A stretch of DNA of 64,000 bases from positions 93,570 to 157,569 of the forward strand of contig CAUJEL010000040.1 in assembly GCA_963169875.1 (NCBI GenBank), read 5' to 3'. Both the position numbers and the translations under genes were made by a program. Within the stretch, counting starts at the first letter, position 1. Every line of letters starts with the position of its first letter. The notes below the pieces were generated by a model, which saw only the letters and a list, made by a program, of their open reading frames with translations, was not told the DNA's origin and made no database searches. This DNA comes from Candidatus Zhuqueibacterota bacterium (GTDB lineage: Bacteria; Zhuqueibacterota; Zhuqueibacteria; Residuimicrobiales; Residuimicrobiaceae). Positions 1,979 to 5,854 of the stretch are shown piece by piece.

Positions 1979-2935
1979 TTGTCAAACGCTGAATTTGCTG
2001 CCATCGACTTTGCGCGCTTGCTCGCACCTGAGCAGCGCCCCGTGCAGCGCGGGCCCCGGGTAATAGCGGTGAGTTCGGGAGGCCGCGGTACGGGTAAGAC
2101 TGCCATAGCCTGGCTCCTGGCGCAGACGCTGTCGCATTTGGGCCGCAGGACCATTCTGATCGACACGGACCTGACCGCTGCGGGCATTTACCATCGCGCT
2201 AAAAACATGGCGGCGGATAAAATGATACAGCAATTCCTGCAGCAGCGAGAGGATGTCAATATTCTCACGCAATCGACTCCCTGGAAAAACCTCTATTTGA
2301 TCACCGGTTCGGCCAATGTCAGCTCCCATGCCAGAATGACCTTTGCGGCGAAGCAAAAGCTGCTGCTGCAGTTGCGCCAGCTAAAATCCGACTATGTCAT
2401 TCTCGATACGGGTGAAGGCAGCAGCTATCTGCATCTCGATTTCTTCCTGGCGGCGGATCTGGCGATCGTGGTCACAGGATTCTCCAGCGCACAACTGCTT
2501 GAAGCCTACCAATTTATTCGCACGGGATTCTACCGCCGTATGCAGCCACACGGCCGTCGTTGGCAGGATTTATTCAGCTATGTGACCTCTCTGGGCGAAT
2601 TGAACCGGCAGGGAAGCGTCCGGTCTCTTCCCGATTTTTTGCGAACCCATGATATTCCCCATGCGCATGTGTGTAAAATAATCAGGGACCAACTGCGCGG
2701 TTACCACCCGATCCTGCTCTTCAACCAGGTCGAGGCGGACCAGGACCACTCCAAAGTAGCGCTGCTCTTCAATGTTCTGCAGGAGGTCATGGGCATTACA
2801 GCCGCGCATTGGGGAGAAATACGGCGCGACGAACGCATCGGCAAATCCCTATTGCAAGCCAAACCGCAGTTGATGCTGGGCGGCCCTGCAGGCATGGATA
2901 TCGGCGAGCTGGTGCGCAAGCATCTGATGTCATGA
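1979..2935 (+). CDS. MinD/ParA/FlhG-family P-loop protein with degenerate deviant Walker A
   Basis: VIAVSSGGRGTGKT, ILIDTDL, YVILDTGEG; TTG start after GAGGAG. Confidence 0.8.
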   Translation: MSNAEFAAIDFARLLAPEQRPVQRGPRVIAVSSGGRGTGKTAIAWLLAQTLSHLGRRTILIDTDLTAAGIYHRAKNMAADKMIQQFLQQREDVNILTQSTPWKNLYLITGSANVSSHARMTFAAKQKLLLQLRQLKSDYVILDTGEGSSYLHLDFFLAADLAIVVTGFSSAQLLEAYQFIRTGFYRRMQPHGRRWQDLFSYVTSLGELNRQGSVRSLPDFLRTHDIPHAHVCKIIRDQLRGYHPILLFNQVEADQDHSKVALLFNVLQEVMGITAAHWGEIRRDERIGKSLLQAKPQLMLGGPAGMDIGELVRKHLMS

Positions 2936-3076
2936 AGGAGGCCTAACCCTCCATTCCTTGCCGGCGGGTTTTCGCCACCCTGCGATTCACCCTGAATAAC
3001 CGAATTGCACGGCGGGTGTAACCCGCCCAGGTGCATGAGCGCAGCGCAGCCCTGCCCCCCTCCTGCACGATTTCGC

Positions 3077-3105
3077 TTGCACTTCCCTTCAGATTCCATT
3101 ATCTT
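3077..3105 (+). promoter_or_regulatory. Sigma70-type promoter for a probably leaderless mRNA
   Basis: TTGCAC-17nt-TATCTT, then 5 nt to ATG 3111; no Shine-Dalgarno. Confidence 0.5.
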
Positions 3106-3110
3106 ACATC

Positions 3111-3461
3111 ATGAAAAACCTGCGCCAAAATAGTGAACCCGTTTTTCTGCTGGCTCTTTATTGCTTCATTGTTGTGGCCGGATCCCTTCTATCCGTTAGT
3201 ACTTTTTTATATTTCCACAGTTATAAAGTTACCATAGAACCTTCGCAGGGTAACGCGCCGGGCAGCGGGCAGCCGTCCTGGGTGCAGAATAGACATATTC
3301 CAGCGTTTCCCAAGCTGGAAACCAATCCATCCGCACTGGCCCTCCAAGTGCCATTCCCGCAAACCGCCCGGTGTGAATACCTTCACTATGTGCAGCCTTT
3401 TCTTCTTTCCTGTACATTCAAATTTTTCCGCTTCCTGCCCCGCGATCCTCCATCAGCGTGA
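3111..3461 (+). CDS. Small TM protein with C-terminal RDPP (RAPP-like arrest-peptide candidate)
   Basis: 116 aa; hydrophobic N-terminal segment; ends FFRFLPRDPPSA. Confidence 0.55.
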   Translation: MKNLRQNSEPVFLLALYCFIVVAGSLLSVSTFLYFHSYKVTIEPSQGNAPGSGQPSWVQNRHIPAFPKLETNPSALALQVPFPQTARCEYLHYVQPFLLSCTFKFFRFLPRDPPSA

Positions 3462-3570
3462 GTCATAATTACCACCCATTTTTATATCCTGATATTCCAG
3501 TCCGGAATCTGCTGCACTCTGCGGATTGACTGGAATCACGCTGACTTTTTATTATTTGGGAGGCTTACTC

Positions 3571-3699
3571 ATGAAACCAGAAGAGAAAAAGACCCCTCAG
3601 AACAGCAGTGATTTTTCATTCATATACCCCGTACTGCTGCTGGGTGCCATCGTCATCGGCATCCTCGTCCTCGGATTGCGCATGGTTGGTGTTTTTTAA
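3571..3699 (+). CDS. 42-aa single-TM small protein
   Basis: Below ORF-track cutoff; GGAGG SD; MKPEEKKTPQNSSDFSFIYPVLLLGAIVIGILVLGLRMVGVF. Confidence 0.7.
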   Translation: MKPEEKKTPQNSSDFSFIYPVLLLGAIVIGILVLGLRMVGVF

Positions 3700-3714
3700 C
3701 AAGGAGGATTACTC

Positions 3715-3840
3715 ATGTCGACCAGTGCCTGGATCATGATGCTCTGCACCTGGGCGGTTGCCATTTTTTTCGTCGTCAAATTATTTATCAAAGTCCTGCG
3801 ACTGCCGCTGGACCAGAAGCGTTCTGTAAAAGACAACTGA
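3715..3840 (+). CDS. 41-aa single-TM small protein, resembles small accessory subunits of Na+-dependent transporters
   Basis: AAGGAGG SD; MSTSAWIMMLCTWAVAIFFVVKLFIKVLRLPLDQKRSVKDN. Confidence 0.7.
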   Translation: MSTSAWIMMLCTWAVAIFFVVKLFIKVLRLPLDQKRSVKDN

Positions 3841-4166
3841 AATGGTGTGGCATGCCGCGCCATTGAACGTACAGCTGTTTGCTTTGGGAGTGGCAATACG
3901 GTGCCCCGGCACCGCTCGAACCGCGCGGACGTGTCGGCGTGGTTCGAGCGCCGTCGTGGCGGCGCACTTCACTGCTGAATGCACAAGAGCTGGATTTTGC
4001 GATGAACTTGAGCGAAGGGACCGTTACAGGGATTGCCACATTAGGTAATCGTAAAAGAGGTCAGCACACCTCATGCACCTGTCCGGTATTTCGTGCGGAA
4101 TTCTGAAGCGATGTGTTGCGTTTAAGGATGGGATTTCGCGGGTGATCGCCCAGCGGCAGGCATGCA

Positions 4167-4358
4167 TCACGCTTCCTTGCAGCAGGACTCCTCGTCCGCA
4201 TGGCGCAGGTCATGTTCGGCGCAGCGGGTGCCGGTGCTGCAGTGACCGCCGCCGCAGCAATCGCTCTCCGGCCGCTGTTTATATTTACTGAAATGCAAAG
4301 CCAGCGCAAGAAATAAAAAGACAATAAAAAACAGACCAACGACTGCCAGAAACTGCAT
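4167..4358 (-). CDS. nqrM: NqrM-like Na+-NQR maturation protein
   Basis: 63 aa; one TM followed by Cys-rich tail (SDCCGGGHC...C...CC); directly after apbE; GAGGTG SD. Confidence 0.55.
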   Translation of the reverse strand: MQFLAVVGLFFIVFLFLALALHFSKYKQRPESDCCGGGHCSTGTRCAEHDLRHADEESCCKEA

Positions 4359-4365
4359 ATGCACC

Positions 4366-5421
4366 TCATTTTTGAACGTACGCAGCAAAAGCTGCTGTAC
4401 TGATTTCGCTGAAACCGCTGTCCGACTTGACCAGCATAAAGACCGCCAGGGATTCCTGTTCAGCCAGTTCAAGTCCCTTTTCCGGACCAAGCACATCGAG
4501 GGCCGTGGCATAGGCATCGGCCATCATGCAGGAGGCATGCACCACACTCACCGAAGCCAGATTGTGGGTGATGGGCCGGCCCGTGTGCGGATCGATGGTA
4601 TGCGAATAGCGCACACCTTCTTTCTCGTAATAATTGCGATAATCCCCCGAGGTCGCCACGCCGGCGCTTCCCGGAGAGATCACCTTTTGCACGACCTGGT
4701 CAGCACGGGGTGAAGAGATGCCGATCCGCCATGGAATCGCCGCGGCATTGTTCCCGCGCACCCGCACTTCGCCGCCGATCTCCACCATGTAATCCCATAT
4801 ATCTTTGGACTCGAGGTACTCCGCGACGCAGTCAACCCCGTACCCTTTGGCGATGGCCGACAGATCGCAGTACATGCCCGCCGTCCGTTTCATCACCTGC
4901 AAAGAGTCTCGCTTCAGGAGGAGGTTGCTGAAACCGACCATGGATTTGCGCGTCAGAATGGCCTGAGAATCCGGCAGAGCATCCGGGCGTTTTTCCGGAC
5001 CAAAACCCCACAAATTGACCAGCGGTCCAACGGTGACATCAAAAGCGCCGTTGCTCTTTTCACTCATCTCCTGTGCAGCGGCCAGGACCAGCATCAGTTC
5101 ACGCGAAACAGGATGCCAGGCGCCGGGGGCTGCACGATTCAATCGCGACAGCTCCGAGTCGGCAATATAGGTGGACATCACCTGATTGATCTCTGTCAGA
5201 AGCGCATCGATTTGGCTTTGCAGTGTATCAGGTTCAATCGTCCGTCCGGCGGGTGCAACAACCTTGACGCTGTAGATGGTGCCCATGGTCGTACCGCGGA
5301 GGCTGTAAAGCGTGCGTTGAGGTTGCGGGGATGTGCAAGAGACAAAAAGTAACGAAACAATGCACAAAACAACACATGCGGGCCAAGTGCGTCCGCTACT
5401 TTTTCCAGCGCCAGTTTTCAT
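4366..5421 (-). CDS. apbE: FAD:protein FMN transferase (lipoprotein)
   Basis: TMGTIY, FDVTVGPLVNLWGF, DLSAIAKGYGVD, VATSGDYRNY, YSHTIDP, ADAYATA. Confidence 0.95.
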   Translation of the reverse strand: MKTGAGKSSGRTWPACVVLCIVSLLFVSCTSPQPQRTLYSLRGTTMGTIYSVKVVAPAGRTIEPDTLQSQIDALLTEINQVMSTYIADSELSRLNRAAPGAWHPVSRELMLVLAAAQEMSEKSNGAFDVTVGPLVNLWGFGPEKRPDALPDSQAILTRKSMVGFSNLLLKRDSLQVMKRTAGMYCDLSAIAKGYGVDCVAEYLESKDIWDYMVEIGGEVRVRGNNAAAIPWRIGISSPRADQVVQKVISPGSAGVATSGDYRNYYEKEGVRYSHTIDPHTGRPITHNLASVSVVHASCMMADAYATALDVLGPEKGLELAEQESLAVFMLVKSDSGFSEISTAAFAAYVQK

Positions 5422-5854
5422 AATATTCCCAGCTGACCATGTGATTCAATTCATCAAATTCCCGTGTTTTTTCCAGCAAGGCCGTCCGGATGACATCACC
5501 GCTGGAAAGGACACCGATGATCTTGCCGTCCTTTTCAACCGGCAGATGGCGAATCCGCAAACCCAGCAATTTGTCCATGAGGCGATAACACGGTTCCGTA
5601 TGCGGGACGGTGATCAGTGGCTTGGACATGTGCTCGGCGATCGGAATGAGGCGTGGATCGAAACCCGGAATCAGATTGGCGCGCAGCAGATCGCGCTCGG
5701 ACCAGATTCCCACCATTTCACCCTTGTCTTCCACCAGTATCGCACCAATTCGCTGCGCAATCATGATCTCTATCGCGTCGTGCAGGGTCGCTGTGATGGG
5801 GACGGCGTGGACATACCCCCCTTTTTGCTGGAGGATATCTTCAGCTGTTTTCAT
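5396..5854 (-). CDS. Stand-alone CBS-pair protein
   Basis: RIGAILVED..MVGIWSERD, IRHLPVEKDGKIIGVLSSGD; ATG 5854 after AAGGAG. Confidence 0.9.
   Translation of the reverse strand: MKTAEDILQQKGGYVHAVPITATLHDAIEIMIAQRIGAILVEDKGEMVGIWSERDLLRANLIPGFDPRLIPIAEHMSKPLITVPHTEPCYRLMDKLLGLRIRHLPVEKDGKIIGVLSSGDVIRTALLEKTREFDELNHMVSWEYYENWRWKK

Follow-up and report, generated by a model that had tools for sequence, protein, structure and literature searches.

A candidate RDPP-core translation-arrest leader upstream of two micro-genes in a Candidatus Zhuqueibacterota genome

Introduction

MifM of Bacillus subtilis, a monitor of YidC-type insertion, has one N-in transmembrane (TM) helix and an arrest sequence near its C-terminus, and its stalled ribosome opens an mRNA structure that hides the Shine-Dalgarno sequence (SD) of the next gene. 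In VemP of Vibrio alginolyticus, the monitor of the Na+-driven SecDF1, release of the arrest depends on a sodium-dependent process. ApdA and ApdP (PMC7897499, PMC10951233) are small proteins with an N-terminal localisation signal, a C-terminal R-x-P-P core and a conserved stretch adjoining that core on its N-terminal side, and they are encoded just upstream of a co-directional gene. These last features are shared by the subject of this study, a 116-codon open reading frame (ORF) at positions 3111-3461 of a 64,000-nucleotide (nt) stretch of a Candidatus Zhuqueibacterota genome (GCA_963169875.1, contig CAUJEL010000040.1, positions 93,570 to 157,569 of the forward strand), the whole of which we call the window and whose own numbering is used throughout. 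A sequence-only reading of this DNA had proposed that the ORF, which ends in the codons for R-D-P-P-S-A and precedes two very small membrane protein genes, is a force-sensing arrest leader of the ApdA/ApdP type.

Much of what can be expected of such a leader has been set out recently. Saturation mutagenesis of ApdA/ApdP found the Arg and the first Pro irreplaceable, whereas position 2 tolerates Gly fully and Ser, Asp and Pro partially (PMC12992588). In December 2025 the same report widened the class to small TM or secreted proteins with RAPP or RGPP encoded before many other genes, and validated seven such leaders in Streptomyces lividans (PMC12992588); among the downstream genes, the searchable text of its supplement lists cation:proton antiporters and CusA/CzcA pumps. 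Together with the RQH proteins (PMC10987492, PMC12992588) and CruR of Bordetella (PMC9426467), these small ORFs form the class into which the family described here falls: they too are small TM or secreted proteins, patchily distributed, with a RAPP-like motif near the C-terminus, and they too precede non-sec genes. The surveys differ from ours in having searched for RAPP and RGPP, not RDPP. From comparison of the locus with its relatives we conclude that ORF 3111-3461 is probably a RAPP-like translation-arrest leader, with RDPP as its core, that controls the downstream micro-genes.

A candidate leader gene conserved for its C-terminal peptide

ORF 3111-3461 is a real gene. The promoter, the reading frame, the C-terminal motif and the downstream gene of 42 codons (micro-gene 1) all recur in relatives, and these features exceed what chance would give. 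ATG 3111 is the earliest in-frame start after the upstream stop, and the 116-residue product, ending in FRFLPRDPPSA, carries RDPP as residues 111-114, with two residues between motif and stop; it has no Pfam or NCBIfam match at an E value of 1 or lower. The N-terminal hydrophobic helix and the R-D-P-P-S-A end on which the sequence-only reading was built are both there, and AlphaFold2, given an alignment of 24 sequences, returns a single helix over residues 8-36 (predicted local distance difference test up to 95) and no structure for the remaining 80 residues. The linker had been called Pro/Ser-rich; it does hold 9 Pro and 6 Ser in its 70 residues (37-106), which makes it only moderately Pro-rich.

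Profile searches of 1.84 billion representative proteins, with a second search of a 5.8-billion-protein set, returned about 40 distinct homologues, each of about 116 residues, that share a basic N-terminus, a TM helix with an invariant Tyr, a mid motif W-T-Q-x-K-H-I-P-x-x-x-K, an FP near residue 83 and the C-terminal R-x-P-P. Those named in databases are all annotated as "hypothetical protein". Conservation of the ORF and of R-x-P-P in homologues had been put forward as the first check on the arrest idea, and the motif is kept in 40 of 41 family members: it reads RDPP in 19, RAPP in 18, RDPT in 2 and RPPP in 1, and is lost in 1, with position 2 occupied by D (19+2), A (18) or P (1) only. It stands 2 residues before the stop in 24 homologues and 3-7 residues before it in the remainder, and in the 24-sequence alignment R111 is nearly invariant and P113 invariant. 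Five further close loci, two from genomes of the same family (G010, G003) and three from metagenome contigs (L011, L012, L016), encode homologues of 115-116 residues and 35-60% identity that all end (F/Y)(F/Y)RF(L/Q)PRDPP(S/A)(A/V) before the stop. The (F/Y)R(F/Y)(L/Q/W)P that precedes RDPP is conserved throughout the RDPP subgroup; the RAPP subgroup has S/T-rich stretches in its place. Profile searches of 125 genomes from the class and 167 from the phylum yielded 3 carriers in each set, none of them beyond the three genomes already known; one distant member comes from a metagenome-assembled genome labelled Chlorobiaceae. Patchiness of this kind is typical of arrest peptides (PMC10987492).

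It is the C-terminal peptide, rather than the RNA, that is under strong selection. Nei-Gojobori counting gave, for the last 10 codons, a proportion of synonymous differences (pS) of 0.63 and of nonsynonymous differences (pN) of 0.06 (pN/pS 0.09), against a pS of 0.72, a pN of 0.41 and a pN/pS of 0.57 for the linker, with synonymous divergence near saturation throughout. The codons for R, D, P, P, S and A vary freely among loci, so the peptide is conserved and the RNA is not. Moreover, the tetrapeptide is one that the genome otherwise avoids. From composition, its ORFs of at least 200 codons should hold 13.9 copies of RDPP, 22.8 of RAPP and 20.0 of RGPP; they hold 0, 3 and 5, and the avoidance of RDPP agrees with the published proteome-wide avoidance, in which RDPP is among the most under-represented tetrapeptides of bacteria (PMC12992588).

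The residues that the family accepts at position 2 all lie within the arrest-permissive set A, G, S, D and P and so fit the ApdA/ApdP mutagenesis (PMC12992588). The likeness to the ApdA/ApdP motif noticed from the letters alone gains weight from the family itself, in which RDPP alternates with the canonical RAPP and about half of the members carry the latter. As judged from sequence, the family has the R-x-P-P core, its conservation, the N-terminal helix, the small size and the motif close to the C-terminus that would place it in the RAPP-like class. It is not a monitoring substrate in the sense of SecM, MifM, VemP, ApcA, ApdA or ApdP, because no Sec or YidC component is encoded downstream in the window or in relatives, where the downstream genes are those for NhaA, NSS, SSF, OtsA/B, MscS, a Na_H_Exchanger protein and an ABC2 transporter. 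Nor did Pfam and NCBIfam searches, at an E value of 1 or lower, find sequence homology to any described monitoring substrate.

A fixed distance from mid motif to R-x-P-P

Of 38 members, 37 have 43 residues from K68, in the mid motif, to R111 and the remaining one has 42; from Y17, in the helix, to K68 the distance is 51 residues in 31 of 38. This constancy is seen at roughly 20% identity and in a tail for which no structure is predicted. An unconstrained disordered tail would gain insertions and deletions; fixed lengths are expected if it matters how far from the peptidyl-transferase centre the helix and mid motif are when the ribosome arrives at R-x-P-P. The mid motif would then lie about 45-55 residues from that centre, near the tunnel exit.

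The same spacing could also come from a compact fold that AlphaFold2 missed, its alignment holding only 24 sequences, and it would then fit a different explanation: that the 116-residue product is a structural small membrane protein, partner of the 42-residue protein or accessory to a Na+-coupled transporter, whose RDPPSA end is an interaction, processing or degradation motif at which no ribosome stalls. A second conserved motif, WTQxKHIP...K, alongside the invariant helix Tyr would be natural in such a protein; the micro-gene-1 family is found only beside these leaders, which suggests a protein pair; and one homologue (P0018) does without R-x-P-P altogether. We nevertheless regard a purely structural role as distinctly unlikely. 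The motif alternates among RDPP, RAPP and RPPP, which is the arrest-supporting set, amid neighbouring residues that vary; no long ORF of the genome contains RDPP; the tail lacks predicted structure; and a covarying pairing between the stop region of the leader and the translation initiation region (TIR) of micro-gene 1, described below, indicates that ribosome occupancy at the 3' end of the leader matters.

A promoter that would give a leaderless mRNA

The promoter picked out in the sequence-only reading is present as described and proves to be general. A -35-like TTGCAC (3077-3082), a 17-nt spacer, TATCTT (3100-3105) and 5 nt (acatc) lead to ATG 3111, with no GGAG-like sequence in between that could serve as an SD. 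Among the six close loci, the sole alignable upstream DNA is CTGCAnnGATTTCnCTTGC(C/A), followed by 17-18 nt, TA(T/C)CTT, 5-6 nt and the ATG, and the more distant RDPP-type loci L024, L031 and L032 have TATCTT or TACATT 6-8 nt before theirs. Across the nine RDPP-type loci, that is, a -10 box (TA(T/C)CTT or TACATT) stands 5-8 nt before the ATG and an SD is absent; the micro-genes, in contrast, have SDs. The RAPP subfamily keeps a similar -35 region, with a similar GATTTnnGCTTGCA, and likewise lacks an SD, its -10 box being about 15-20 nt before the start. A putative leaderless or near-leaderless mRNA is thus well supported by the comparison of promoters across loci. Such a start is unusual for the RAPP-like arrest class.

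Directly 5' of the -35 element lies a further stretch, CTGCAnnGATTT(C/T)n at 3063-3076, that also occurs in L011, L012, L009, L010, L016, L025 and L029 and is common to the RDPP and RAPP subfamilies; it could be a candidate site for a regulator or a special sigma factor, adding transcriptional control. The whole spacer from the gene for a ParA/MinD-like ATPase to the leader promoter (2936-3076) is structured and G+C-rich (folding free energy, dG, -55.5 kcal/mol, z -3.2), and is partly conserved in L011, the closest relative.

Predicted RNA pairing between the leader stop and micro-gene 1

A bulged hairpin between the leader and the SD of micro-gene 1 was part of the original observation, and it is real: the arms 3494-3502 and 3528-3536 run on into an inner stem, and the hairpin folds at -20.7 kcal/mol (z = -4.7), a stability reached by none of 200 shuffles. 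What had been missed is an outer stem in which UCAGCGUGA at 3453-3461, the codons for S-A-stop, pairs perfectly over 9 pairs with UCACGCUGA at 3537-3545. The hairpin 3494-3536 was rejected as a conserved element, since the spacers of other loci are mostly no stabler than shuffles; whole-spacer folding energies elsewhere are unexceptional against shuffles save in L024. By comparison of loci, the conserved RNA feature is instead the pairing of the stop-codon region with the ribosome-binding region of the micro-gene.

This was seen in a focused pairing test, in which a segment comprising the final two sense codons, the stop and the 12 nt that follow was set against positions -19 to +3 of micro-gene 1. 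Predicted duplexes of -14.6 to -20.7 kcal/mol were obtained in L012, L010, L016, L031 and L032 (shuffle p 0.008 or lower), with weaker ones in L024 (-7.3 kcal/mol, p 0.05), L011 (-5.5) and L009 (-5.0), and cognate pairs beat non-cognate pairs (permutation p 0.00065). Moreover, the pairing has a common register with compensatory changes. The third base of the stop pairs A-U in four loci and G-C in three UAG loci, so that UAA and UAG stops covary with U and C in the TIR; at the position after it, five loci have U-A and one each has G-C and C-G. In the window, the corresponding pairing of 3456-3464 with 3562-3570 has a stronger rival in the stem 3453-3461/3537-3545, and in the minimum-energy fold CCUCC, from the D-P-P codons, is also paired with the SD, which is the GGGAGG at 3558-3563 reported earlier along with the two micro-ORFs. 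As a candidate read-out, unmasking of the TIR is accordingly supported for the family and weak in the window.

The stem 3453-3545 with the U-rich tract behind it (3546-3557) invites another explanation, in which the stall holds but works through transcription attenuation: the two would form an intrinsic terminator that closes only when the S-A-stop codons are free of the ribosome, so that a stalled ribosome would bring read-through into the micro-genes. The outer stem with its 9 perfect pairs followed by CUUUUUAUUAUU has the right look; the same design is found in L016, U-rich tracts follow structures in other loci, and leaderless translation would hold the first ribosome near the polymerase. 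We still think attenuation unlikely. A consensus terminator scan of 2800-4400 found no terminator; the long stems contain bulges, and the U tract of L012 starts 4 nt past the stem; most spacers at other loci are no stabler than shuffles; and the helix that is conserved and covaries involves the TIR, not the U tract. The same scan called a promoter-like TTGACT-18-TATTAT at 3526-3555 (10 of 12 matches), which overlaps the U-rich tract and the hairpin's 3' arm; it is probably a chance resemblance, being unconserved in the other loci. Rfam at gathering thresholds gave 0 matches over the whole window.

A proposed model for a probable arrest leader

From these features we infer stalling, membrane topology, release by force, the sensed signal and the direction of regulation as follows. 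The mRNA would begin at the AUG or at most 2 nt from it, and the ribosome would trail RNA polymerase from the first codon. The N-terminal helix, held N-in by the basic N-terminus, would go to the membrane. With peptidyl-...R-D-P(113) occupying the P site and Pro114-tRNA the A site, formation of the peptide bond would be slow, as in ApdA/ApdP, and the stalled ribosome would occupy the R-D-P-P-S-A-stop codons and about 2 nt more. These bases otherwise pair with the ribosome-binding region of the 42-codon gene or with the 3' flank of the hairpin; during the stall, therefore, the micro-genes would be expressed and, in relatives, the transporter and osmotic-stress genes. Pulling on the nascent chain, by membrane insertion or by translocation of the tail of about 80 residues, would release the stall. 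A TM ORF ending in RAPP also precedes an efflux operon of the RND type in the same genome (contig C98, below), an observation that lends support to arrest at this locus too.

Several results weigh against this model. One homologue (P0018) is without the motif and two have RDPT, and in ApdA/ApdP Asp at position 2 is only partially permissive (PMC12992588). The WTQxKHIP motif and the exclusive partner gene suggest that the protein may have a function of its own. The absence of Sec/YidC components among the downstream genes leaves a force sensor with no obvious physiological logic. At the RNA level, the 35 nt that would lie under the stalled ribosome pair with the TIR no better than dinucleotide shuffles do (p 0.05-0.8), Pro, Phe and Leu codons being pyrimidine-rich anyway; in the window the predicted duplex of stop region and TIR is weak, at -9.5 kcal/mol (shuffle p 0.20, with 8 of 9 positions paired); and masking the footprint of the stalled ribosome lifts the predicted accessibility of the window SD only from 0.05 to 0.23.

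Placed beside the described systems, the leader differs from each. There is no homology to ApdA/ApdP beyond the 4-residue core, which here is RDPP, until now known solely from mutants of those proteins, in which it was partially permissive; what lies downstream is not secDF, the mRNA appears to be leaderless, and a mid motif at a fixed distance comes in addition. MifM has an unrelated arrest sequence, RIxxWIxxxxxMNxxxxDEED (PMC12992588), and yidC2 as its target, and in the present family about 80 residues separate the helix from the stall. TnaC/SpeFL and mgtL/mgtP are alike in being leader ORFs in which occupancy of the end by a ribosome controls a downstream operon that includes transporters, but they are of about 17-34 residues, cytosolic and without a TM helix, and they sense small molecules or tRNA charging. 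The family itself, the native RDPP core, the fixed spacing with the mid motif, and the NhaA, NSS and trehalose contexts with a micro-protein partner seem to be undescribed. None of these four is to be found in the main text of PMC12992588, and the searchable text of its supplement gave no match to the family motif WTQHKHIP.

If stalling is true, this would be the first natural arrest-peptide family with an RDPP core, and one in which RDPP and RAPP exchange within a single homologous family; the spacing of 43 residues, free of insertions and deletions, would offer a handle on how the part of the nascent chain outside the tunnel tunes arrest. Nascent-chain regulation would then also reach Na+/H+ antiporter, Na+-symporter and trehalose operons of uncultured lineages.

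Downstream genes in the window and in relatives

Synteny downstream, the other check proposed at the outset, is conserved: micro-gene 1 follows the leader in 9 of the 9 RDPP-type loci that have downstream sequence. Its product has no Pfam or NCBIfam match. In the window it is followed, after 15 nt, by micro-gene 2. Two micro membrane genes are thus the context here, as first described, but in relatives the context is wider. L031, whose leader is 23% identical to that of the window, has micro-gene 1, micro-gene 2, a gene for an OtsA-OtsB fusion and one for a Na_H_Exchanger protein; G010 has micro-gene 1, an NSS symporter gene, micro-gene 2 and an SSF symporter gene; L016 has micro-gene 1 and a gene for NhaA that is split by an IS3-family element; and in L024 and L032 the leader is followed by micro-gene 1 only. 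In the RAPP subfamily, L025, L029 and L030 have genes for a 69-residue two-helix protein, NhaA and OtsA, together with OtsB (L025, L030) or MscS (L029), and L028 has two small ORFs and an ABC transporter gene. The homologue without the motif (L027) is followed by a gene for a 183-residue protein and by CLC channel genes. Sodium and osmotic stress form a recurring theme in what lies downstream, the basis for which is gene neighbourhood only. The original suggestion that a context other than sec/yidC would be new is weakened because RAPP/RGPP leaders before many non-sec genes, cation:proton antiporters included, were reported in 2025 (PMC12992588); what stands of it is that the NhaA, NSS and trehalose contexts seem undescribed.

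Micro-gene 2 has a weak, sub-threshold resemblance to NF033493, the MetS family of small NSS transporter subunits (14.4 bits against a cut-off of 25, E 0.024). Its homologues stand directly after NSS genes in G010 and on another contig (C65) of the window's own genome, which is not the arrangement in the window or in L031; the L031 homologue comes right after micro-gene 1. Between the window and G010, where it is the gene behind the NSS symporter gene, micro-gene 2 is 85% identical, whereas the leaders of these two genomes are only 38% identical. We rejected an exclusive tie of micro-gene 2 to the NSS transporter, since L031 has leader, micro-gene 1 and micro-gene 2 and no NSS gene. As to the NSS genes themselves, that of G010 (L009 4752-6415) encodes a 545-residue symporter of the SNF family and sits between micro-gene 1 and micro-gene 2, and contig C65 (14305-16046) has a 77%-identical NSS gene with its own micro-gene 2 paralogue and no leader. 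In L016 (4634-7135), the NhaA gene is split at Pfam profile position 142/143 by an opposite-strand pair of IS3-family transposase genes.

The nature of these genes bears on a further explanation, that the Pro-Pro pair serves as a sensor of proline, of charged tRNA-Pro or of the supply of elongation factor P (EF-P), as in Salmonella mgtL/mgtP, rather than in nascent-chain arrest or the sensing of membrane pulling. D-P-P is a strongly EF-P-dependent context, which counts for it. So do the osmotic and sodium stress genes of the relatives (NhaA, OtsA/OtsB, MscS, and NSS and SSF symporters), in that tRNA-Pro charging and EF-P both change under hyperosmotic stress; the Pro codons of mgtP make it responsive to proline limitation and to hyperosmotic stress (PMC3641672). 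A sensor of this kind would, however, leave the invariant Arg, the (F/Y)RF(L/Q)P, the TM helix and the fixed 43-residue spacing unexplained, and arrest at RAPP/RGPP is refractory to EF-P (PMC12992588). We rate it as very unlikely.

A more specific form of the arrest leader can be drawn from the same neighbourhoods, and we offer it as speculation that is improbable as it stands: that the family is a co-translational sensor of sodium, osmotic or membrane-energy stress, with the R(D/A)PP stall timed by a ruler of 43 residues and released by translocation of the tail that an ion-motive force would drive. WTQxKHIP would be placed at the tunnel exit or the translocon when the stall occurs, and a failure of sodium homeostasis or membrane energisation would prolong the stall and so turn on the micro-proteins as well as, in relatives, trehalose synthesis, NhaA and Na+-coupled symporters. 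VemP is the nearest parallel, in that the family precedes Na+-linked genes (again by gene neighbourhood only); it differs in having no sequence similarity and in controlling secDF2. If true, this would be a VemP-like logic applied to ion homeostasis instead of to the secretion machinery.

The features of the locus are collected in Table 1.

Table 1. Coordinates of the leader, the micro-genes and associated elements in the window
Feature	Position	Strand	Description
Upstream element CTGCAnnGATTTCn fused to the -35-like hexamer (CTTGCAC)	3063..3082	+	Conserved in six close loci
-10-like hexamer TATCTT	3100..3105	+	5 nt ahead of the ATG; points to a leaderless mRNA or to a leader of at most 2 nt
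Leader gene	3111..3461	+	116-residue single-pass membrane protein, C-terminus RFLPRDPPSA-stop; from homologues and alignments
TM helix codons	3132..3218	+	Residues 8-36; Tyr17 invariant in the family
Mid motif W-V-Q-N-R-H-I-P-A-F-P-K	3279..3314	+	Family consensus W-T-Q-x-K-H-I-P-x-x-x-K; conserved across the family
C-terminal decapeptide RFLPRDPPSA	3429..3458	+	Candidate arrest sequence; RDPP codons 3441-3452
Predicted stall codons	3447-3449, 3450-3452	+	Pro113 in the P site, Pro114 in the A site, by analogy with ApdA/ApdP
Extended stem-loop	3453..3545	+	Outer stem 3453-3461/3537-3545 enclosing hairpin 3494-3536; z -4.1 for 3450-3560
Leader stop-codon region GCG UGA GUC	3456..3464	+	Predicted to pair with 3562-3570; register common to seven other loci
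U-rich tract CUUUUUAUUAUU	3546..3557	+	Between stem and SD; U-rich tracts likewise placed in other loci
Ribosome-binding region of micro-gene 1	3558..3570	+	SD GGGAGG 3558-3563 and spacer to the AUG
Micro-gene 1	3571..3699	+	42-residue single-pass membrane protein (MKPEEKK...GVF-stop)
Micro-gene 2	3715..3840	+	41-residue membrane protein (MSTSAWIMML...); SD AAGGAGG 3702-3708
Two G+C-rich hairpins, 3841-3864 and 3914-3949	3841..3949	+	dG -68.7 kcal/mol, z -2.9

Other small ORFs and the end of the operon

Elsewhere in the genome, on the minus strand of contig C98 (plus coordinates 4992-5570) and outside the window, there is a second small TM ORF (MAKKAPSCIFLFFTIIALLVHAVIPHHHHPGSVCVDEDH...SVGLRAPPLA-stop), which is His-rich after the helix and ends in RAPP, 2 residues and the stop. 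It lies about 195 nt upstream of genes for an HlyD-type adaptor lipoprotein and a CzcA/AcrB-like RND pump, and its features suggest a RAPP leader responsive to metal, one of the class that PMC12992588 lists.

Within the window, the paired hairpins that follow micro-gene 2 are likely to mark the end of the small operon, which faces a convergent nqr/apbE cluster. Adjoining apbE and nqrF-C there is a small ORF on the minus strand (4167-4517), ending ...KYKQRPESDCCGGGHCSTGTRCAEHD..., that looks like the Na+-NQR maturation factor NqrM, but read at 116 residues it had no NCBIfam match at an E value of 1 or lower and no Pfam match above cut-off. Its true start is probably an internal Met (MQFLAVV...).

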